Assembly (NCBI GenBank): GCA_031403955.1
Contig: JANNGR010000583.1
Location: 3,865-67,864 of the forward strand
Length of the DNA stretch: 64,000 nt
Source of the DNA: Betaproteobacteria bacterium
GTDB taxonomy: Bacteria > Pseudomonadota > Gammaproteobacteria > Burkholderiales > Burkholderiaceae_C
Reading direction: 5' to 3'
Positions 12,036 to 21,824 of this stretch are shown in pieces. Below the pieces are notes generated by a model. The model saw only the letters and a list, made by a program, of their open reading frames with translations. It ran no database searches and had not been told where the DNA came from. The stretch's first letter is position 1, and each line of letters starts with the position of its first letter. A program made the position numbers and the translations under genes.

Positions 12036-12849
12036 GTTGCGGCTACACGTCAAGTTGGGCTCTTGCCTAGGGAAGACCCTCGTGCCAGAAAACGCAGATA
12101 TGCCAACATCAAGGCTCGATGCCCCGCGGTTATTCTGGCTGTGAACGGGTCCAAGGAGCCACCATGCGGCAATACCCCGGTGCGATTCACCCGCCGTGCA
12201 GCCGGTGCGGTGTATGCCTTGTTCGCGGACGAGACTTCGGCTACCGACTTTGCCGCTTTGTGGAGCCTGGCAGTTCGGGCGCACTGTCCGTTACTCAGCT
12301 TCAATCAGGCGATGGTATTTGGCGACAGCGACTTTGGCGTGCTAAAGGCAGGCACGACCGCCTTGGGCCATGCGCGGTCCCTTGCCGCGCGGGAGCTGCC
12401 GTTGGCGACCCCGATCACGGAACGTGCGCAGCGTACGGGCCGGGCTATGGTTGGAAGGTGGTCACCAATCCTGCCATGGTCTCACGCCTTTGGCGGAGGT
12501 TGACGCCGTTGCTTAAACCGCCTGGCCTTTGCCGCGTCAATGGAGTCGGTCCAGTCGGTCCGGATTTTTGCCGCCTGCCGATTGACGGATGCCTTGTTGA
12601 CTAGTGGTCTGACTTCCTGAATCCTGGCCCAGATCGCAGCAAAGGTGTTGGGGCGCTCATGAGCCGGCCTGTGGCAAGCGCCATTGTTATGGCCGACTAT
12701 TTCATGATCCGAGTCAAAAAGAGGCGCAGGTAGAGATTGATGCCGTCATTGATATCTGGATGCTCAGAGCCGGCCACACACCGTCAAGTGCAAGTCAAAC
12801 GGCTCAATCCTGTTATTAGTTTCCGGGTGCTCAGAGTCATGAACTAAGA

Positions 12850-12922
12850 AACCGCCGGATACCTGATCCGTGCGTCCGGTGGGGTGGGAGGGAGGGGCCG
12901 CCAGTCCTCTTCCTACGTCGAT
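12850..12922 (+). mobile_element. Group IIC intron 3' relic (domains V and VI)
   Basis: ACCGCCGGATAC..GT(GC)GTCCGGTGG forms a DV stem with CGC triad and G-U wobble, followed by a GGGAGG...TCCTAC hairpin with a candidate bulged A (12915), ending CGAT; no RT ORF nearby. Confidence 0.72.
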
Positions 12923-13118
12923 TTGACTTCTCTATGATGGTTCCTAGTTGGATTAAAACAGGCTGTGAAATTCATCGCCGTGGTCGACGGTTTTGATCTG
13001 ACTGGTGGATTGGTGCACTGAAAGTCGTGCAAGAAAAACGCGGTCGGCATATCTGCATTCAGGCCAGCCATGCCGCCGTGAACGGGCATAACCAGTTAGG
13101 AGACGAAAGAGGTGCACC

Positions 13119-13691
13119 ATGAGCGCTGACCTTCCCAAGATGGCTCGACAACCGGTTGGTGACAAGTTAGCGCGCCAGAGATTCATCGCCAGGACGATCT
13201 GGTTCACGGTCCCCGGGACTTACCTGCTGCTCGGGGTGGCGTATGTGATCCTTCCGCCGCTCCAGGGGCTGGAGCAGGCCAGCGCGCGACTCTTGCTGGC
13301 CGTGCGATGGCTCTTGGTCGCCATGATTCCCTATGCGGCGGTTTGTATGGCGATTGCGTCCGCCCGTTTTTTCGAGGGGGCACACAACCCTATTTTGGGC
13401 GCGGAGAGCGAGCGCCTGAAGATTCACTGCCGCGTCATGCAGAACACCCTCGAGCAACTGGTCTGGTTCGCGCTCTGCGTGGTTCCCCTGGCGACTTATC
13501 TCGAACCCGCGCAAGCGCGCCTCGTCCCGATCGTGTGTATATTCTTCGCCCTTGCTCGTTTCGTCTACTGGTGGGGATATCTGCGCAACGGCACGCTCGG
13601 ACGGGCGCCCGGCGTGCAGTTCACATTTACACTGAACATCTCCTTGCTTGTGCTCGTATTGATGCTGTTCGCAAGACACCTGGCCTCGTGA
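13119..13691 (+). CDS. MAPEG family membrane protein
   Basis: Four hydrophobic segments; 'RVMQNTLEQL' and 'FALARFVYWWGY'. Confidence 0.8.
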   Translation: MSADLPKMARQPVGDKLARQRFIARTIWFTVPGTYLLLGVAYVILPPLQGLEQASARLLLAVRWLLVAMIPYAAVCMAIASARFFEGAHNPILGAESERLKIHCRVMQNTLEQLVWFALCVVPLATYLEPAQARLVPIVCIFFALARFVYWWGYLRNGTLGRAPGVQFTFTLNISLLVLVLMLFARHLAS

Positions 13692-13717
13692 CCAGGTCTG
13701 CTCCTTTCCTGTTGTTG

Positions 13718-15172
13718 CTACGCGCGGTCTGAATCCAGTGCCCGCGGCCGGCGCGAAACAATGTCCTGTGCGCGCAGCTCGTACGCGCGGGCAATCTGCA
13801 AAACCGCCAGATCCGCCTGCGGGCGTCCGATCAACTGCATGCCCATCGGCAATCCGGCCGAGTTAAAACCCACCGGAACGCTGATGGCGGGCAGGCCCGC
13901 CAGCGTGGCATAAATCACCACCTCCATCCAGCGGTGGTAGGTATCCATCACCCGAGCGCCGATCGTCCGCGGCTAATGCAGCGTGGCGTCAAATGGCCAT
14001 ACCTGTGCCGCCGGCAGTGCCAGGAAATCGCAGTGCTCGAACAGGCGCAACAGCTGCTGGTAGAAAGCGGTTCGTGCCACACTGGCGTCGAACACGTCGC
14101 GGGCCGATAACTGCTCGCCCTGCGCGGCTTCCCATTGGGCTTCGGGTTTTAGCTGTGCGCGTTGCGCCGGATCGTCCCAATATGGCTGCTGCGTGGCGGC
14201 GACCAACCAACGGCGCCAGATGAGCCAGGTTTGCCAGACGTCGGCGGGCGCAAAGCCTGGGGCCGTGGCCTGCACGATGCAGCCGTCCAGGGCCAGCCGT
14301 GCCAGCGCCTGCTCGCACAGCGCCAATATGCCGTCTTCCATCGGAAGGTAAGCGTCGAGGTTGCCGAGCCATCCGATACGTACGGTTTTCAGGTCCAGCG
14401 ATAGATCGAGCGACGCGGCGGGCCAGTGGCCGGCAATCGACAAGGGTGCCCGGTCGTCGCGTCCGGCTTGTACTGACAACAACCGCGCCACGTCTTCAAC
14501 CGTGCGCCCCATCGCTCCTTCGGTGCCAAGCTGGCTCAGCCATTGATCGGGTCGGGGCCCGCCCGGCACCCGGCCATGGCTGGGACGCAGTCCAAACACG
14601 TTGTTGAACGCAGCCGGGTTGCGCAGTGAGCCCATCATGTCACTGCCGTCGGCCACCGGCAACAAACGTAGCGCGAGCGCCACCGCCGCCCCGCCGCTGG
14701 ACCCACCGGCGCAGCATTGTGGATCGTAGGCGTTGCGCGTGATGCCAAATACCGGGTTGTAGGTGTGCGAGCCCAGACCAAACTCGGGTGTATTGGTCTT
14801 GCCAATCAGAATGCCACCGGCGGCTTTCATGCGCTGGACCATTATGTCGTCGTGCACCGGAACGTTGTTCGCGAGCAAGGGCGAACCTTTGGTCGTGACA
14901 ACACCGGCGGTCGCGCTCAGGTCCTTGACGGCCATCGGAAAGCCATGCATCCAGCCGCGACTGGTGCCGGTGGCCAACTCAAGGTCGCAGGTGTCGGCCT
15001 GCGCCAGCAAGTTGTCCGCATCGACACGACTGACGATCGCATTGAAGCCTGGATTCAGGCGGTCGATCTGCGCCAGGCTGGCTTGCATGGCTTCCCGGCA
15101 TGACAACTGCCGGGCGTGGATGCGCAGGCTTAGCTCGGTGGCGCTTAAGTCCGTGATGGTGTTTGACAACAT
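13718..15172 (-). pseudogene. Amidase signature family protein interrupted by an in-frame TAG at 13973-13975
   Basis: 'AVKDL', 'GKTNTPEFG', 'GGSSGG', 'GSDMMGSLRNPA'; the frame continues past TAG as '[17 protein letters not shown]...[10 protein letters not shown]'. Confidence 0.85.
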
Positions 15173-15179
15173 GCCGCGC

Positions 15180-16295
15180 TCACCAATGCAACTGGCGCAG
15201 GGTTTCAAATTGCGCCGCCAGGTTGGTCACCAGACGCTGTTGATCACTCTGCAGGCGCTGCCCCGGCGTCATGTCGTGTTGCGCCGTGAATGGGCAAACC
15301 ACGTCGGTACGGATGCCCGACAATTGTTCCAGCACCGCCAGCCCCCAGAACGGCACCGACACCGGGCAATAACCACCTTCGTGCAACAAAATGATGCGGC
15401 TCTGGGCATGGCGGCGCGCAACGTCCACCATCAGCTCGGTCATCCAGCGAAACGCAATATCGTCCAGCAGCATGCGCCCGAGCTGGTCGAATTTTCCGGC
15501 GTCGTAACCGCAGGGGATGATCACCAGTTCAGGGGCAAAGGCATCCAGCGCGGGAACCACAATACGCTCGAACACGTCGCGGTAGGCGCCAAAACCGCAG
15601 CCCGCGGGCAATGGCACGTTCAGGCTGTATCCGAGACCGGGACCGGACCCGATCTCATCCGCTTCCCCGGCCACTTGCAGGTAACCGGCCTGCTGGTGCA
15701 CCGAGATGTTCAGCACATCCTTGCGGCTCTCGAAACAGGCCTGGGTACCGTTGCCAAAATGCACGTCCCAGTCCACGATCGCGACGCGTTTCAGGCCGTA
15801 TTGCGTAATCGCGTGTTCGGCTGCCAGCGCGGCGTTGGCAAACACGCAAAAACCCATCGACCGGTCGGGTTCGGCATGGTGACCGGGCGGGCGTGTCAAT
15901 GCATAGGCGTGTTGCACCGTGCCAGACATTACCGCGTCTGCCGCGGCCAGGCCACAACCGGCGGAACGTACCGCGCAGTCCCAGCCATTGGACGAGATCG
16001 GCGCGCCGATGCCAAGTTCGCCGCCGCCGGCCTGGGCAACGGTTTGCACGTGTGCGACATGGCGCGCGGTATGCAGGCGCAGCAACTCATCGGTCGAGGC
16101 GTCGCGCGACGCAATGTTGGTGAGCTGGCTGCCCAGTCCGCTGGCATTCACCAGGTTGAGCAGGCGCCGCTTCGGGTCCGGATTCTCGATGTGCCGGTTG
16201 TAGGGCTCGATGTAGCCGCCGGGTTTTAGCATTAAGGCGTAATTGCCCGGGTCGTGCCAGAAGCAGCGCTCGTCGGTGACAAAGCCGGTTTTCAT
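15180..16295 (-). CDS. Class II HDAC-like Zn-dependent amidohydrolase (deacylase)
   Basis: 'RPPGHHA', 'DWDVHFGNG', 'GYDA', 'EGGY': catalytic His pair, Zn ligands and Tyr are intact. Confidence 0.93.
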   Translation of the reverse strand: MKTGFVTDERCFWHDPGNYALMLKPGGYIEPYNRHIENPDPKRRLLNLVNASGLGSQLTNIASRDASTDELLRLHTARHVAHVQTVAQAGGGELGIGAPISSNGWDCAVRSAGCGLAAADAVMSGTVQHAYALTRPPGHHAEPDRSMGFCVFANAALAAEHAITQYGLKRVAIVDWDVHFGNGTQACFESRKDVLNISVHQQAGYLQVAGEADEIGSGPGLGYSLNVPLPAGCGFGAYRDVFERIVVPALDAFAPELVIIPCGYDAGKFDQLGRMLLDDIAFRWMTELMVDVARRHAQSRIILLHEGGYCPVSVPFWGLAVLEQLSGIRTDVVCPFTAQHDMTPGQRLQSDQQRLVTNLAAQFETLRQLHW

Positions 16296-17803
16296 GCTGG
16301 CCTCCTTTTGCCGGGCCACAACTGATCAATCAAGCGTTGAACCAGCGGCCAGCAGATGATCAACAACGTCAGGCCGACCATCCAGGCCGACAGCGGGCGG
16401 GTGATAAACGGCATGAATGATCCTTCGCTCACCGCCAAGGTCTGGCGCAGATTGGCTTCCAGCGTGTCGCCCATGACCATGCCCAGTACCATCGGAATGG
16501 TGGGAATCTTGCAGCGCGCGCACATCAAACCAAAAATGCCGAAACCGAGCGCCAGCCAGACCAGGTACCAGGAGTTCGCGGAGGAATAGGCGCCCACAAG
16601 ACACAACACGAGGATGGCCAACCCGAGTTTGCGCGGATTCACATACGCCAGCCGGGCAAGGTATCTCACGCCCCAGATCAACATCAGCATCACCAGCGCG
16701 TTTAGCACCAGCAGCCCGGCAAATATTCCGTTGACGATCTCCGGGCGCTCGGCAAACAAGGATGGCCCGGGAACGATGCCGTGCACCACAAAAACGCCCA
16801 TGATGATGGCTGTCATGGCGTCGCCGGGAATGCCCAGCGCCAGCACGGTGATCATGGCGCCGCCGGAGTTGGAATTGTTTGCCGCTTCGGCCGCCACGAT
16901 ACCCTCCGGGTTGCCTTCACCAAATGGTGTTGGGTCGGTGGCGCCGCGTTGGGCCCAAAAATACGCCATCGAAGTCGACAACGCCGCGCCTACCGCCGGC
17001 AGGATGCCGATCGCGGTGCCCAGGAACAGACCCTTGCACAAGCTGCGCGGGTAACGCAACGGCTCCAGGAATGCGCGCCACGACAGCCCGGCCTGGTTGA
17101 TCAACGAGGCGTCGAATTTTGGAACCGGAGAACTCACCATTACCAGCGCCTGGGCCAGACCAAACAGGCCGACCACCACCGGCACCAGCGGAATACCGCT
17201 GAGCATGTCGGCGCCGCCAAAGGTATAACGCTGCTCGTTCGAGTTGGGGTCGATGCCAACCGAGGCCAGGAAGAAGCCCAGGGCCATCATCATCATCGCC
17301 GAGCCAAACTGTTTCTGGTACGCCTTGCCTACACACAGCGCCGCCAGCACAATCGCCATCACACCTTCCGCGACGCCGAAACGCGCCGCAAAACTTGCCA
17401 CCGGTTTGGCCGCCAGCCCGAGCAACAGCGCACTGACGATGCCGCCAATAAACGAGGCCATGAAAGCCAGCGACAAAGCGCGCTGCGCTTCACCCCGTTT
17501 GGCCATCGGGTAACCGTCAAACATGGTCATGATGGATGAGGCTTCTCCCGGTGTTCGGATCAGGATCGAGGTTACCGCCCCGCCCGGAAACGAGCCCACA
17601 TACACCCCCAGCAACAGCGCGATGCCGGCCATTGGCGGCATTCCATAGGTAAAGGGCAACATTACCGCAATCGTCACGCCAGGGCCAACACCTGGCAATA
17701 CGCCGACCACGACGCCAATCGCCGCGCCAGCGATCATCGCGATGGCCACCGGCAGGGTGCTGATGGCACCGAAGCCTTGCGCCAGACTGTTCAGAAAATC
17801 CAT
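16292..17803 (-). CDS. Tripartite tricarboxylate transporter large permease (TctA family)
   Basis: 'GVLPGVGPG', 'RTPGEASSIMTMFDGYPMA', 'AAEAANNS', 'LGIPGD'. Confidence 0.93.
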   Translation of the reverse strand: MDFLNSLAQGFGAISTLPVAIAMIAGAAIGVVVGVLPGVGPGVTIAVMLPFTYGMPPMAGIALLLGVYVGSFPGGAVTSILIRTPGEASSIMTMFDGYPMAKRGEAQRALSLAFMASFIGGIVSALLLGLAAKPVASFAARFGVAEGVMAIVLAALCVGKAYQKQFGSAMMMMALGFFLASVGIDPNSNEQRYTFGGADMLSGIPLVPVVVGLFGLAQALVMVSSPVPKFDASLINQAGLSWRAFLEPLRYPRSLCKGLFLGTAIGILPAVGAALSTSMAYFWAQRGATDPTPFGEGNPEGIVAAEAANNSNSGGAMITVLALGIPGDAMTAIIMGVFVVHGIVPGPSLFAERPEIVNGIFAGLLVLNALVMLMLIWGVRYLARLAYVNPRKLGLAILVLCLVGAYSSANSWYLVWLALGFGIFGLMCARCKIPTIPMVLGMVMGDTLEANLRQTLAVSEGSFMPFITRPLSAWMVGLTLLIICWPLVQRLIDQLWPGKRRPA

Positions 17804-17828
17804 GCTGATCCCGGGGCCTCGACAGACC

Positions 17829-18323
17829 CTAGGGCAACAGGCCGTGCCCGAAGGCAACCTTCAATACCCGAACAAAAACCAGCCACATGCCGGCGCTCAT
17901 GAGCACGGCGAGGACCAGAGTCTCCCTCAGGCGCAGGCCCAGAAACATACCGGTGAGACAAATGAACAAGAAGCTACAAGTCGCGTATCCAAGCCAGGGT
18001 ATCGCCCATAGGTAGGCCATGAACAATACGACCACCATGGCGGCCTGCCGCAGGTTGGCGCTGCTGGAATCGAGTTCCTCACTGCCACCGCGGTCAGAAC
18101 CACCGCGCCGGCGCACCAGCATTTCCCCCAGGCCACCGAGCAGCGCGAGACCAAGCGTGAGGCGCGGGAACAGGGCGGAAGACTCGTACCAGGGAGCGTT
18201 ATGCGGGTACGGAACGATCAGTGCCGGGGTGGCTGCAAAAAGTGCCGCTGCTGTCACCGCCAAGGTGATCAGCAGCAGTTGGTCTGTATTGCGGCCGCGC
18301 GCCCTGGTGTCGGGTGCCGTCAT
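17829..18323 (-). CDS. TTT small permease (TctB family)
   Basis: Four TM segments; 'LFPRLTLGL', 'WLGY'; lies between the TctC and TctA genes with a TAATG overlap. Confidence 0.8.
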   Translation of the reverse strand: MTAPDTRARGRNTDQLLLITLAVTAAALFAATPALIVPYPHNAPWYESSALFPRLTLGLALLGGLGEMLVRRRGGSDRGGSEELDSSSANLRQAAMVVVLFMAYLWAIPWLGYATCSFLFICLTGMFLGLRLRETLVLAVLMSAGMWLVFVRVLKVAFGHGLLP

Positions 18324-19276
18324 TATTTTTTCGCGAATCCGAGTTCGCTCATCAGTTCGGTGATCCACTTGGTATCGGCTGCCACCTGTCTGGTCATTTG
18401 CTCGCTGTTCATCACGACCGCGGGCACGCCGAGTTTGGCCAGCAAGTCCAGCACCGGTTTGTCTTTCAGGGTTTCAGCAATCACGGTAGACAGCCGCGCC
18501 ACAACGTCCTTTGGAACACCGACTGGCGCCACCATGCCGGTCCACAGGAACATGTCACCGTAACCGTCTTCCTTGGCGGTGGCAACTTTAGGCAATAGCG
18601 GGTTGCGCTCCAGGGTCCAGGCCGACAAGACCTTGACCTGGCCGTCCTTCACATAGGAAGAAACCATTTCGGCGCCAGTGGTCGTGACGTCGGCGTCCCC
18701 CGCGACCAGTTCCTTCGCGCCCGGGTTTCCAAACGCCACCACCTTGAACGGCCAGCCATCCTTGCGCGCGATTTTCACCGCCATCAGCGCCGGCACGGCA
18801 GCCGGGGCATAACTGCCGATGATGACGGGTTTGCCGTTTTTCTTGGCCCACTCCGCAAACTCCTTCAGGTTGTTGGCGGGGATATTGCCTCTGGACGCCA
18901 GAACGAAGTCATTCGCAAAAATGCCCGCCACCGCAACATAGTCACTTTGTTTGTAGGGCGTATTGCCGGCGACGATTTGTGAAATGCCGGGGCCCGGTGT
19001 CCAGCTGCCGATGGTGTAGCCATCGGGCTTGGCTCGCACCATCTCGCCAAAACCCACCACACCGCCGCCGCCCGGTTTGTTGATCACCTGCACGGGTACG
19101 CCCAGGCGTTTGCTCATGCCCTCGGCCAGCACGCGCATAACGGCGTCGGCGTCATTTCCCGGTGGGTAGGGATAAATTATCTCGATCGTCTTGCTGGGCC
19201 ATTTGTCCTGCGCAATCACGTGCATCGGCACAAACATGGCGCTAACGAGCCCAATTACGGTAATTAACTTTTTCAT
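18323..19276 (-). CDS. TTT periplasmic substrate-binding protein (TctC/Bug family), divergent
   Basis: Signal peptide; 'WPSKTIEIIYPYPPG', 'INKPGGGG', 'PDGYTI', 'VPKDVVARL'. Confidence 0.88.
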   Translation of the reverse strand: MKKLITVIGLVSAMFVPMHVIAQDKWPSKTIEIIYPYPPGNDADAVMRVLAEGMSKRLGVPVQVINKPGGGGVVGFGEMVRAKPDGYTIGSWTPGPGISQIVAGNTPYKQSDYVAVAGIFANDFVLASRGNIPANNLKEFAEWAKKNGKPVIIGSYAPAAVPALMAVKIARKDGWPFKVVAFGNPGAKELVAGDADVTTTGAEMVSSYVKDGQVKVLSAWTLERNPLLPKVATAKEDGYGDMFLWTGMVAPVGVPKDVVARLSTVIAETLKDKPVLDLLAKLGVPAVVMNSEQMTRQVAADTKWITELMSELGFAKK

Positions 19277-19332
19277 GACAGTCTCCAATTGGTTGGGTAA
19301 AACAAGAAGACGATACCGGCGCCGGTCCGGGT

Positions 19333-20709
19333 TCAAGCGGCCGTCGCCTGGGTAAACGCAGTGTGCAGAATCGCCACCGTTTCATCAACATGGCTGCGGG
19401 TAAACACCAGGGGTGGCGAGAGGATCAGGCGATTGCCCTGGATCCGCACGATGGCACCCTCGCGGCGCGCAATCGCGACCAAACGCTGGGATGGCACTTC
19501 GGTTGGCATCAGGGGCTGTTTCGTGGAACGGTCCTTGACCAGTTCCAGTGCCGCCATCAGACCCTTGCCACGGATGTCGCCCACCATGGCATAACGGTCG
19601 AATTCGCGCAGCCGTTCCAGCATGTAGGCGCCAACCGCCAGGGCGTTGCCAGCCAGGTCTTCGGCCTGAACAATATCCAGGTTGGCGTTGGCGGCGGCGC
19701 AGGCCAACGGATGGCCCGAGTAGGTGTAGCCATGCATCACGGCGGCCAGTGGGTGCTCGCGTTTCCAGGCGCTTGCCACGCGTTGGTTGACAAGTGTGGC
19801 GCCCAGCGGCACATAACCCGAGTTGATGCCCTTGGCCATGGCCATCATGTCTGGCGCCACACCCCAGGCGCGGGCCCCGCACATGCTGCCGATACGGCCA
19901 AAACCGGTCACCACTTCGTCCGAGATGAGCAAAATGCCGTATTGGTCCAGTATGCGGCGCACACCGGGCCAATACCCCGGCGGCGGTACGATGACACCAC
20001 CGGCCCCCTGTACCGGCTCGGCCAGGAAAGCAGCGATGGTCGAAGGCCCCTGGTACTGGATCGCGCGTTCCAGTTCCGCAAGCGAGAAATTCAGCAACTG
20101 CTCATCGTTGCTGGCGCCCCACGGATTGCGGTAGGCGTAGGGCCCTTCAAGCTGGAAAAAGCCCGGCATCAAAGGCTCGTAGGCGACCCGAAACAAGGGG
20201 TTGCCGTTGGCCGACGCCCCACCGAAGTGAACCCCGTGGTAACCCAGTTTGAGCGACAGGATTTTCACCCGCTCGCCTTGCCCCTCGAGTTTCCAGTACT
20301 GTCGAGCGAGCTTGATCGCGGTTTCCACCGCGTCCGAGCCACCCGAGCTGAACAACACTTTGGCCATGTCTTCGGGCGCGAACATTTTCATCAGCCGACC
20401 GGTGAGTTCGACCGCCGGGGTATTGGACGTATTCACGAAGGTCGAGTAATAGGCCAGCTTGTCGAGTTGCGCAACGATCGCATTCCTGATTTCGGGCCGG
20501 TTGTGCCCGACGTTGACGTTCCACAACGAGGCCACCGTGTCGAGGTATTTCTTACCGGTCGCGTCATAGACATACACCCCGTCGCCGCGTTCGATCAGCA
20601 GCGGTGGATGACGCTCCGGCAGTTTGGGGTCCACCATCGGGTGAAGCATCTGGTGGCCGGGCTGCTGGGCCACGGCGGCTTGTTCGGCGCTGGAGGTTGG
20701 GGCATTCAT
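19333..20709 (-). CDS. Class III PLP aminotransferase (SpuC/omega-amine transaminase-like)
   Basis: 'LDTVASLWNVNVGH', 'SGGSDAVE', 'GYHG', 'AEPVQGAGG', 'DEVVTGFGR', PLP Lys in 'AKGINSGY', 'HGYTYSGHP'. Confidence 0.93.
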   Translation of the reverse strand: MNAPTSSAEQAAVAQQPGHQMLHPMVDPKLPERHPPLLIERGDGVYVYDATGKKYLDTVASLWNVNVGHNRPEIRNAIVAQLDKLAYYSTFVNTSNTPAVELTGRLMKMFAPEDMAKVLFSSGGSDAVETAIKLARQYWKLEGQGERVKILSLKLGYHGVHFGGASANGNPLFRVAYEPLMPGFFQLEGPYAYRNPWGASNDEQLLNFSLAELERAIQYQGPSTIAAFLAEPVQGAGGVIVPPPGYWPGVRRILDQYGILLISDEVVTGFGRIGSMCGARAWGVAPDMMAMAKGINSGYVPLGATLVNQRVASAWKREHPLAAVMHGYTYSGHPLACAAANANLDIVQAEDLAGNALAVGAYMLERLREFDRYAMVGDIRGKGLMAALELVKDRSTKQPLMPTEVPSQRLVAIARREGAIVRIQGNRLILSPPLVFTRSHVDETVAILHTAFTQATAA

Positions 20710-20864
20710 GGTGTCCGGTATTTGAGGCTGCGTGACTGCGATGGTAGGAGCCGCCCGTATCGCGTGGCTAGCAAAAATCGGCAACATTCCGGCGCTAGCA
20801 CTGCTCGTTTTCCCTTACTCAAGGTACGATGGTCATACCCGAATCCGCCCAACCCAGAACTAGC

Positions 20865-21824
20865 ATGTCCGCTGACTGGCAGATCCAACAGATACACACT
20901 TCGGACGTGGACGAACTGTCGATGTCGCTGCCGGGCTGGCACCAGCGTTACACCAAGCTGGCACGCGGCAGATTCAGCGGCGACCTGACGTTGGCGTCGG
21001 GTGATGGCCTGCAGGTCTACCGTGAGCGCACCCAGGGCGTCATTCTGGAAGAGGGCGAAACCGACGGCGATACGATTGGACTGGCAATTCCGGTACGTGC
21101 CAGCGGTGATGCTTTCTCGTTTGGCTCCAAACTGGCGGCTGAGCGCGAGGTGATGGGCTTTTTTTCACCCCGGCGCTTGAACTTGCGTACCCCCGAGAAC
21201 TTTGAACTGCTGGTGGTCAGTGTGCGCAAAGACGTGTTTGCGCGCTTCGACCAAGCGCATCACTTCTCGCCCGCGCCACTTTGGATGCCGGGCCGGGCCG
21301 GCCGCCTGCCGCATTGGATGCGGCAGCAGTTGGTCGAAGCGATTTGCGTCTTGATCAGTTCGCAAACCCGCGAACTTGATCTGCCGCGGGCGAAACTCGC
21401 CCTGCTCGACTGCCTGGCCGAGGCCTGGTTGAAATTTGAATCGGCACCGGTGCGCGGCAAGGTTTTGGTGTGCAAGCAGACGGTTGAGTTGGCGCTGGCT
21501 CGGGTGCAGGAATGGATGCGCGAGCGCGCCGATACGCCGTTGAACGTTGCCGCGTTGTGTGCCGAACTGGGTCTGCCGCGGCGCACGTTGCAGTATTCGT
21601 TTGAACAGGCGCTGGGCATCACGCCATTGCAATACCTAAAGAGCGTGCGGCTGGCTGGAGCCCGGCGTGGTCTGAAGCTTGGCTTGGGGTCGGTGCTGGA
21701 GTCCGGCCTGCAATGGGGATTCGACCACCCAAGCGGGTTTGCGCGCGACTACCAGGCGATGTTTGGAGAGCTTCCGTCACAAACGCTGGAGCGCTCCAAA
21801 CCGGTCCAGCGTGCGCGCCCCTAA
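20865..21824 (+). CDS. AraC-family regulator, EutR-like
   Basis: N-terminal 'WHQRYTKLARGRFSG'; C-terminal double HTH 'LCAELGLPRRTLQYSF...YLKSVRL...WGFDHPSGFARDY..MFGELPSQTL'; divergent from the aminotransferase operon. Confidence 0.9.
   Translation: MSADWQIQQIHTSDVDELSMSLPGWHQRYTKLARGRFSGDLTLASGDGLQVYRERTQGVILEEGETDGDTIGLAIPVRASGDAFSFGSKLAAEREVMGFFSPRRLNLRTPENFELLVVSVRKDVFARFDQAHHFSPAPLWMPGRAGRLPHWMRQQLVEAICVLISSQTRELDLPRAKLALLDCLAEAWLKFESAPVRGKVLVCKQTVELALARVQEWMRERADTPLNVAALCAELGLPRRTLQYSFEQALGITPLQYLKSVRLAGARRGLKLGLGSVLESGLQWGFDHPSGFARDYQAMFGELPSQTLERSKPVQRARP

Follow-up and report, generated by a model that had tools for sequence, protein, structure and literature searches.

A conserved gene cluster of Comamonadaceae combining a tripartite tricarboxylate transporter, an HDAC-fold deacylase and an omega-aminotransferase, with a predicted role in the degradation of N-acyl omega-amino compounds

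A stretch of 64,000 nucleotides of the contig JANNGR010000583.1 (Betaproteobacteria bacterium, assembly GCA_031403955.1), referred to hereafter as the window, contains on its minus strand a compact run of six genes. They encode a class III aminotransferase, the components TctC, TctB and TctA of a tripartite tricarboxylate transporter (TTT), a zinc amidohydrolase with the histone deacetylase (HDAC) fold, referred to as the deacylase, and an amidase. A gene for an AraC-family regulator is transcribed divergently (Table 1). The gene families were assigned by Pfam and NCBIfam profile searches of the open reading frames (ORFs) of the window, and the starts were refined from the genes called on a sister-species contig and on a Logan contig of identical sequence, together with the DNA conservation in the divergent region. 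An earlier reading, made from the sequence alone (the sequence-only reading), had described seven genes in this order, orientation and family composition, with gaps of 56 nt or less, some overlaps and a divergent intergenic region; all of this was confirmed, the coordinates of the intergenic region included. The successive junctions from the aminotransferase to the amidase are of +56, -1, +25, -4 and +7 nt. The start of tctB overlaps the stop of tctC by 1 nt, and the ATG of the deacylase is located inside the stop of tctA (ATGA) and is preceded by AGGAGG. The overlap between tctA and the deacylase is found in the window and in the loci L016 and L102 (loci are designated by L numbers). The TTT gene set is complete, the families TctA, TctB and TctC (PF01970, PF07331 and PF03401) being all present in adjacent, overlapping genes.

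Table 1. Features of the locus, numbered from the first nucleotide of the window.
Feature	Position	Strand	Remarks
AraC-family transcription regulator, 319 aa	20865-21824	+	HTH_18 and HTH_AraC matches; divergent from the putative operon
Divergent intergenic control region	20710-20864	none	contains a candidate operator/promoter block
Class III (omega) aminotransferase, 458 aa, subfamily PRK07481	19333-20709	-	PF00202, NF005683; first gene of the putative operon
TctC-type periplasmic solute-binding protein, 317 aa	18323-19276	-	PF03401
TctB small membrane subunit, 164 aa	17829-18323	-	PF07331
TctA large membrane subunit, 503 aa	16292-17803	-	PF01970, 414 bits
HDAC-fold Zn amidohydrolase, 371 aa, PA3774/DmhA/PrpH type	15180-16295	-	PF00850
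Private Pro to Gln site of the deacylase, residue 279 of the 379-aa ORF	15459-15461		alignment of 43 orthologues
Amidase-signature amidase, subfamily PRK07486, frame interrupted	13718-15172	-	PF01425, NF005686

The proteins of the window were compared by tblastn with 45 loci, followed by a clustering of all the neighbouring ORFs. The order aminotransferase-TctC-TctB-TctA-deacylase is identical in about 33 of the 41 orthologous loci from different species, a recurrence which places the arrangement beyond chance, and the conserved unit is composed of these five genes. Together with the overlaps and the narrow spacing of the genes, this constant order is an indirect indication of a single operon. 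Its carriers are Limnohabitans, Rhodoferax, Variovorax terrae and other Comamonadaceae, with variable flanks and regulators; the related loci assign the window genome to Rhodoferax and come from freshwater metagenome-assembled genomes. TctA is 72-90% identical across the orthologous loci, and an orthologue of the aminotransferase adjoins the deacylase in 32 loci. The sequence-only reading had proposed a pathway of six genes and a search for the neighbourhood of TctC, Hist_deacetyl, Aminotran_3 and Amidase. The first three occur together in the loci counted above, but the amidase is not conserved and is missing from all the Limnohabitans and Variovorax versions of the cluster, which reduces the six genes to a core of five.

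The deacylase orthologues (63-85% identity) form one tight clade in the tree, apart from the paralogues with about 50% identity. In a large protein database, about 100 clusters of sequences are comprised in the same range of identity, followed by a gap down to about 54%; some of these clusters hold up to 298 member sequences, which come from freshwater metagenomes. An orthologue was detected in three to four of the 25 genomes of a genus sample and in 7 of the 201 genera of a family-wide sample (the window's own counted), and in none of the 400 genomes of an even sample of the order. It is common in Limnohabitans.

The composition of the cluster differs by lineage. The Variovorax terrae version includes an aldehyde dehydrogenase, nearest to succinate-semialdehyde dehydrogenase and aminobutyraldehyde dehydrogenase (382 bits to the latter). 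One lineage adds an M20 N-acyl-amino-acid amidohydrolase, an enolase-superfamily enzyme and an SDR, and five Limnohabitans loci add an S58 aminopeptidase. In 18 loci of the Limnohabitans type (L027-L058, e.g. L044:1334-5002), the unit MarR-aminotransferase-TctCBA-deacylase is directly preceded by genes for a LysR regulator, a further TctC of the canonical type and a GMC oxidoreductase ("choline dehydrogenase-like"), and a single TctAB may serve both binding proteins. The basal members of the deacylase clade (L018/L019, L112 and L115) have no TTT; SsuA-like (NMT1) ABC transporters and SDRs are found instead, but the associated aminotransferase still belongs to the subfamily PRK07481 (668 bits). 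The persistence of the aminotransferase-deacylase pair while the TTT is replaced by an SsuA-like ABC system points to this pair as the functional core and to an anion as the predicted cargo. The importer is thus exchangeable, and judged by the transporter families it is always of a predicted anion-binding type (TTT or SsuA-like ABC).

Two other arrangements were observed. In one Rhodoferax species the orthologous cluster coexists with a paralogous one (L015, G006:C61:17000-34000), composed in order of an IclR regulator, an aminotransferase (54% identical), an NMT1-type ABC transporter, a sulfatase, a deacylase (48% identical) and another aminotransferase, and thus similar in its make-up to the basal versions. 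An unrelated case of an HDAC-like protein paired with a TTT component is present in Roseomonas and other Acetobacteraceae (L068-L096, e.g. L075:10007-11965), where the gene of an orphan TctC begins 3 nt after that of a Hist_deacetyl protein of 309 aa, which has about 40% identity to the query. This pairing is flanked by housekeeping genes (ROK kinase, ispA, dxs) and was found in at least 14 loci.

The Hist_deacetyl domain of the deacylase (PF00850) was recognized with 263.7 bits over the residues 43-322. The best matches among the PDB chains were obtained with Pseudomonas aeruginosa PA3774 (339 bits, about 48% identity), DmhA (334 bits) and PrpH (332 bits). The whole group is comprised between 331 and 339 bits, including two chains deposited as "Deacetylase" (KpHdaH- or VsHdaH-type), one of them at 336 bits. 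Further matches are HDAC6 (301 bits), FB188 HDAH (249 bits), and acetylpolyamine amidohydrolase (APAH) and HDAC10 (121-130 bits). With regard to the three references named in the sequence-only reading, the match scores place the deacylase nearest to PA3774, then to FB188 HDAH and finally to APAH. The 43 orthologues all have the same catalytic His-His dyad, zinc ligands (D-x-H and D) and catalytic Tyr (GHH, DWDVH, GYDA and EGGY), and the Asn orienting the second His is also kept (GNGTQ). From these residues, the enzyme is predicted to be catalytically complete. A Phe occupies in this clade the position of the second His of the motif DVHH of PA3774. The Glu of the D-P-E-G motif of HDAC10, the polyamine gatekeeper of that enzyme, corresponds here to the motif FD(P/Q)LG, with a Leu in 43 of 43 orthologues and therefore no acidic gatekeeper. 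The N-terminus MKTGFVTDERC does not resemble, by eye, an export signal, which suggests that hydrolysis takes place after import. On the basis of its matches, the deacylase is assigned to the sub-cluster 1b (PA3774, DmhA, PrpH) and not to the acetylpolyamine amidohydrolases. The sub-cluster 1b, to which the PA3774-like enzymes were attributed by Graf et al. (2024), holds lysine deacetylases (KpHdaH, VsHdaH) as well as proven small-molecule and xenobiotic amidohydrolases (PMC11532494).

The aminotransferase matches PF00202 (317 bits) and belongs to the subfamily PRK07481, with 656.1 bits against NF005683 for a cut-off of 575. Among the solved structures, it comes closest to 6s54 (518 bits) and 5lh9 (508 bits), which are both amine:pyruvate transaminases. 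Lower scores were obtained with the SpuC-type putrescine/polyamine transaminases 6gwi (322 bits) and 9j4z (301 bits), with a taurine transaminase (230 bits) and with a beta-alanine:pyruvate transaminase (219 bits). By these values, the SpuC-type enzymes, to which the sequence-only reading had likened the aminotransferase, are not its nearest characterized relatives.

The characterized TTT systems comprise TctCBA for citrate, BugD for aspartate, BugE for glutamate, AdpC for adipate and TphC for terephthalate. The system of the window has the same three subunits and the same TctC fold family, but its TctC does not exceed 114 bits with any of the solved TctC/Bug proteins. The canonical clamp loops (G-G-x-T/S-D and G-x-G-S/T..H) are not found in this protein, where loop 1 is PPGNDAD (PPGNDxD in the orthologues) and loop 2 is GSYAPAAVPAL; the motif G-x-G-S/T..H is present in BugD, BugE and AdpC. 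Loop 2 is conserved as GSYAPAAVPAL in 29 of 31 orthologous loci and is GSYAAASSPAL in the other two. The genome encodes about 67 TctC paralogues. Most of them are canonical, about 12 have no G-x-G-S/T..H, and these may form a sub-class; a G-N-D in loop 1 was found in none of the paralogues.

The reading frame of the amidase is interrupted by a TAG codon (13973-13975), which divides it into pieces of 399 aa and 77 aa. Both pieces match PF01425 and NF005686 (model positions 8-403 and 414-482), and the N-terminal piece alone reaches 579 bits with NF005686 (cut-off 465). The Lys, cis-Ser and Ser motifs of the family are present in the translation (VKDL, GGSSGG and GSLRNPA). An intact orthologue of 485 aa from another Rhodoferax species, with 77% identity, has a TGG codon (Trp) at the position of the stop (LHWPKTIGG in the orthologue, LH*PRTIGA in the window). 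A reading of TAG as a sense codon was rejected: this codon terminates tctB, the amidase itself and 10 of the 50 long ORFs of the window, and is thus an ordinary stop. Exact look-ups of the read-through and truncated amidase sequences revealed no second copy, and a scan of metagenome contigs with a 25-nt pattern, allowing TGG or TAG at the stop, gave no match. The cluster is identical in an independent Logan contig, whose sequence breaks off after 232 nt of the amidase. A third Rhodoferax species (L014/L057) retains directly after the deacylase only the last codons of the amidase, about 125; a deletion of about 360 N-terminal codons has removed the catalytic residues. A fourth, Rhodoferax-like genome (L020/L114) has no amidase, and the gene next to the deacylase is there a TctC gene in convergent orientation. 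The intact gene is kept in only one of the Rhodoferax species compared. The interruption in the window, the relic in one species and the absence in another indicate a decaying accessory gene, and the comparison suggests a real gene loss with a predicted pseudogene in the window genome. This removes the amidase from the pathway genes put forward by the sequence-only reading, and the functional unit in this genome would consist of five genes and the regulator. No general decay of the cluster was found, the window copies of the other genes having 0 to 1 private substitutions at otherwise invariant positions, which is not above the values of the other species.

The locus occupies one chromosomal site common to the Rhodoferax carriers. 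The run GGDEF, ParA, DUF429, BLUF and folE downstream of the amidase is shared by the window and the sister species, and MoeB adjoins the regulator in two species. In the sister species the amidase is directly followed by GGDEF. Relative to it, the positions 12300-13700 of the window contain an additional MAPEG-family gene (13119-13691, plus strand) and about 0.8 kb without long ORFs; this insertion was found only in the window genome.

The regulator aligns nearly over its full length with the EutR model NF007522, but with 115.6 bits for a cut-off of 319, below the level of an EutR equivalog. It is assigned to the AraC family, with a predicted EutR-like overall architecture. Its orthologues (63-70% identity) are restricted to the loci L013, L014 and L020, which are Rhodoferax versions, while a MarR regulator is found in Limnohabitans and Variovorax, i.e. 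in most loci. The statement that the operon stands under an EutR-like regulator is hence not borne out for the cluster, and with such a score the argument that EutR senses an amine weighs little. An alignment of the intergenic sequences of the window, L013/L102, L014 and L100 with MAFFT revealed a block of about 50 nt (GGCTAGCAAAAATCGGCAA ... CTCGTTTTCCCTTA, plus strand, about 20767-20818) that is conserved in three Rhodoferax species between diverged flanks. An ATG at 20787, upstream of the regulator start, is not conserved (ATC in L014), which indicates regulatory rather than coding DNA, and the block is a candidate operator or promoter. No consensus sigma-70 promoter beyond chance was detected by scanning the divergent region.

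From the chemistry of the families and the linkage of the genes, we consider it probable that the module serves the catabolic uptake and degradation of an anionic N-acyl omega-amino compound by a TTT, a deacylase and an omega-transaminase. TctC would take up in the periplasm the anionic compound, most likely N-acetylated, for import by TctAB. The cytoplasmic deacylase would then split the amide to acetate (or another acid) and a primary amine, which the transaminase would convert to an aldehyde, with pyruvate as the probable acceptor. The aldehyde would finally be oxidized by an aldehyde dehydrogenase, whose gene is in the cluster in V. terrae and elsewhere in the window genome. The V. terrae gene supports this scheme, since such a step is expected after transamination. 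In Rhodoferax, the control by an AraC-type activator and an amidase-signature amidase would have been added to this core. The likely substrates are, in decreasing order, short N-acetyl-omega-amino acids (N-acetyl-beta-alanine, 4-acetamidobutanoate), N-acetyltaurine or a related aminosulfonate, and omega-N-acetyl diamino acids (free N-epsilon-acetyl-lysine or N-delta-acetyl-ornithine); acetylpolyamines are unlikely and come below these, and a role restricted to protein deacetylation is very unlikely and comes last. The import of an N-acylated amine followed by its deacylation and transamination, as suggested by the sequence-only reading, is in its logic supported by the conserved core and by the overlap between tctA and the deacylase; the parts of that proposal concerning the amidase and the EutR-like control are not.

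The accessory genes fit the scheme, i.e. the aldehyde dehydrogenase, the hydrolases of N-acyl amides from the M20, S58 and amidase-signature families, and the GMC alcohol dehydrogenase with its own TctC. By analogy, this adjacent pair in Limnohabitans suggests the oxidation of an omega-hydroxy analogue to the same aldehyde. Two parallels are available. The first associates 3-hydroxypropionate with beta-alanine, the 3-hydroxypropionate dehydrogenase HpdH being a GMC enzyme annotated as choline dehydrogenase (PMC6572756). The second links isethionate to taurine: the homologue that comes closest to the Limnohabitans GMC in Rhodoferax (50% identity) is part of a cluster with the composition IclR, xsc-pta-GMC. 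With a similarity of 42-50% to the Rhodoferax paralogues, the Limnohabitans GMC has no clear orthologue that would designate it as HpdH- or IseJ-like.

Several observations weigh against this pathway. The Pro of the DPLG motif, which adjoins the zinc-binding Asp, is common to the 42 other orthologues but replaced by Gln in the deacylase of the window. Structure and sequence comparisons retrieved no characterized close relative of TctC, of the aminotransferase or of the amidase, and a TctC deprived of the canonical carboxylate-clamp loop could bind a ligand other than a carboxylate. At the cluster, the scans for consensus promoters and terminators gave nothing exceeding the shuffled controls. 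Some enzymes of the sub-cluster 1b are moreover efficient protein lysine deacetylases (PMC11532494). It follows from the latter, and from the xenobiotic amidohydrolases of the same sub-cluster, that the deacylase could deacetylate lysines of proteins, or serve in detoxification as a general amidase comparable to DmhA and PrpH which act on pesticides, its adjacency to a transporter then defining no pathway. This is the least probable of the alternatives and we give it very little credence: the same order and the translational overlap with tctA recur across more than 30 species, the same aminotransferase subfamily stays linked even when the transporter type changes, and the module is found in genera of pristine lakes and is common in freshwater metagenomes, as indicated by the size of the sequence clusters.

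The catabolism of acetylpolyamines, evoked in the sequence-only reading, would imply the import of N-acetylputrescine, N-acetylcadaverine or N-acetylspermidine, their deacetylation, and a transamination of the diamine as by SpuC. The HDAC-fold enzymes do include acetylpolyamine amidohydrolases, the amine:pyruvate group that contains the aminotransferase also holds SpuC, the additional Asp of loop 1 of TctC and the clampless loop 2 could suit a cationic ligand, and the V. terrae aldehyde dehydrogenase resembles aminobutyraldehyde dehydrogenase. The distance of the deacylase from APAH and HDAC10 compared with PA3774, the Leu at the gatekeeper position and the anion-importing nature of both transporter types paired with the deacylase clade disfavour this option, and the window genome encodes a separate APAH-like paralogue on another contig (G000:C293), which aligns over the same region as APAH. 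We thus hold it to be improbable. A less remote, though still unlikely, alternative is that N-acetyltaurine or a homologue is the actual substrate, which would be a variant of the proposed pathway at the level of the substrate. The deacylase would free taurine, the aminotransferase would act as a taurine:pyruvate transaminase, and the resulting sulfoacetaldehyde would pass to Xsc or be oxidized or reduced by the aldehyde dehydrogenase or SDR of a given version. The SsuA/TauA-like (NMT1) ABC system of the basal members of the deacylase clade points in this direction, but the NMT1 proteins score under the SsuA and TauA cut-offs. Sulfatases are found nearby in three unrelated versions of the cluster, and SDR genes adjoin the deacylase at L017, L018, L112 and L115. 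The window genome has an Xsc (1061 bits, cut-off 676), and Xsc was detected in 6 of the 10 genomes that have a deacylase orthologue versus 3 to 4 of 14 without (one being a partial match at a contig end). It is however absent from three genomes carrying the core (V. terrae, G659 and G720) and present in several without it, so that its distribution does not follow that of the cluster. The xsc-pta-GMC cluster that contains the closest homologue of the Limnohabitans GMC is typical of isethionate degradation, but the similarity hardly separates the paralogues (50% versus 47-48%). Finally, the aminotransferase is much closer to the amine transaminases (518 bits) than to the single solved taurine transaminase, and the known bacterial system for N-acetyltaurine (NaaS with an ABC transporter) is described as consisting of different genes (PMC4334477).

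IclR-controlled Xsc clusters were observed in the Rhodoferax genomes, as xsc-pta-GMC in L122 (G010:C2:542-7710) and as xsc-ackA followed by a molybdopterin oxidoreductase in the window genome (G000:C264). They indicate a degradation of C2 sulfonates.

The module proposed here, in which an N-acyl omega-amino compound would be imported, deacylated and transaminated, was compared with the systems already described. With the PA3774 group of the sub-cluster 1b (KpHdaH, VsHdaH, DmhA, PrpH; PMC11532494), the deacylase shares the fold, the length and the catalytic and zinc-binding residues; DmhA and PrpH show that such enzymes are able to act on small-molecule amides. It differs from this group by its separate clade, by the Phe that replaces the second His of DVHH, and by its inclusion in a putative operon with a transporter and a transaminase. 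The survey of bacterial deacylases assayed peptides, and its text contains none of the terms "tripartite", "TctC", "aminotransferase" or "genomic context" (PMC11532494). The APAH of M. ramosa and PA0321 and PA1409 of P. aeruginosa are likewise HDAC-fold deacetylases of small molecules that free a primary amine for catabolism, but they are distant in sequence and the substrates of APAH are cations, whereas transporters of the type found in the window import anions. Ectoine degradation (DoeB deacetylase, DoeD transaminase, DoeC dehydrogenase, and a TRAP or ABC importer) follows the same logic of uptake, deacetylation, omega-transamination and oxidation, and the M20 hydrolase of one cluster version resembles DoeB2 (329 bits, below the cut-off of 550). 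All the protein families are nevertheless different, with an HDAC fold instead of M14/M20 and a TTT instead of TRAP, and neither doeA nor ectoine genes are found here. The N-acetyltaurine system of Cupriavidus necator and Ruegeria pomeroyi also imports and deacetylates an anionic N-acetyl amine before the transamination or oxidation of taurine. It is composed of NaaS, a putative metallochaperone, the ABC importer NaaABB'CC' with two permeases and two ATPases, and a LysR regulator (PMC4334477); the distinction is made here by annotation alone, and nothing ties the NaaS genes to a TTT.

The association of a binding-protein-dependent importer, a deacylase and a transaminase is therefore a known type of system, while the pairing of a TTT with an HDAC-like enzyme is undescribed in the literature searched. 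The sequence-only reading had known of no pathway of this kind, and a full-text literature search, with subscription journals outside its scope, found none either. The same search retrieved no bacterial gene for a deacetylase of N-acetyl-beta-alanine or 4-acetamidobutyrate, the mammalian PTER being the sole enzyme found for N-acetyl-beta-alanine, and nothing relevant on Limnohabitans in relation with TTT or deacetylases.

The link of the deacylase clade to a transporter and a transaminase indicates a catabolic role on small molecules, which bears on the cellular role of the PA3774-type HDAC homologues of bacteria. If the module is a route of the kind proposed below, it would provide the first physiological small-molecule substrate for an enzyme of this type, and bacterial genes for two deacetylase activities to which none was assigned in the literature searched (EC 3.5.1.21 and EC 3.5.1.63). 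It would also establish a subtype of TctC in which the ligand is bound by other means than the canonical carboxylate clamp, and would widen the ligand range of the poorly characterized TTT family. For the window genome, the gain in annotation is a functional unit of five genes with its regulator and an amidase flagged as a pseudogene. The role on small molecules is testable in cultured carriers, namely Limnohabitans planktonicus II-D5, several other Limnohabitans isolates and Variovorax terrae. We propose tentatively, with somewhat less assurance than for the pathway itself, that abundant freshwater Comamonadaceae use the five-gene module as a catabolic route, hitherto unassigned, for omega-amino acids or aminosulfonates in N-acetylated form, which would name a source of dissolved organic nitrogen for the dominant bacteria of lakes.

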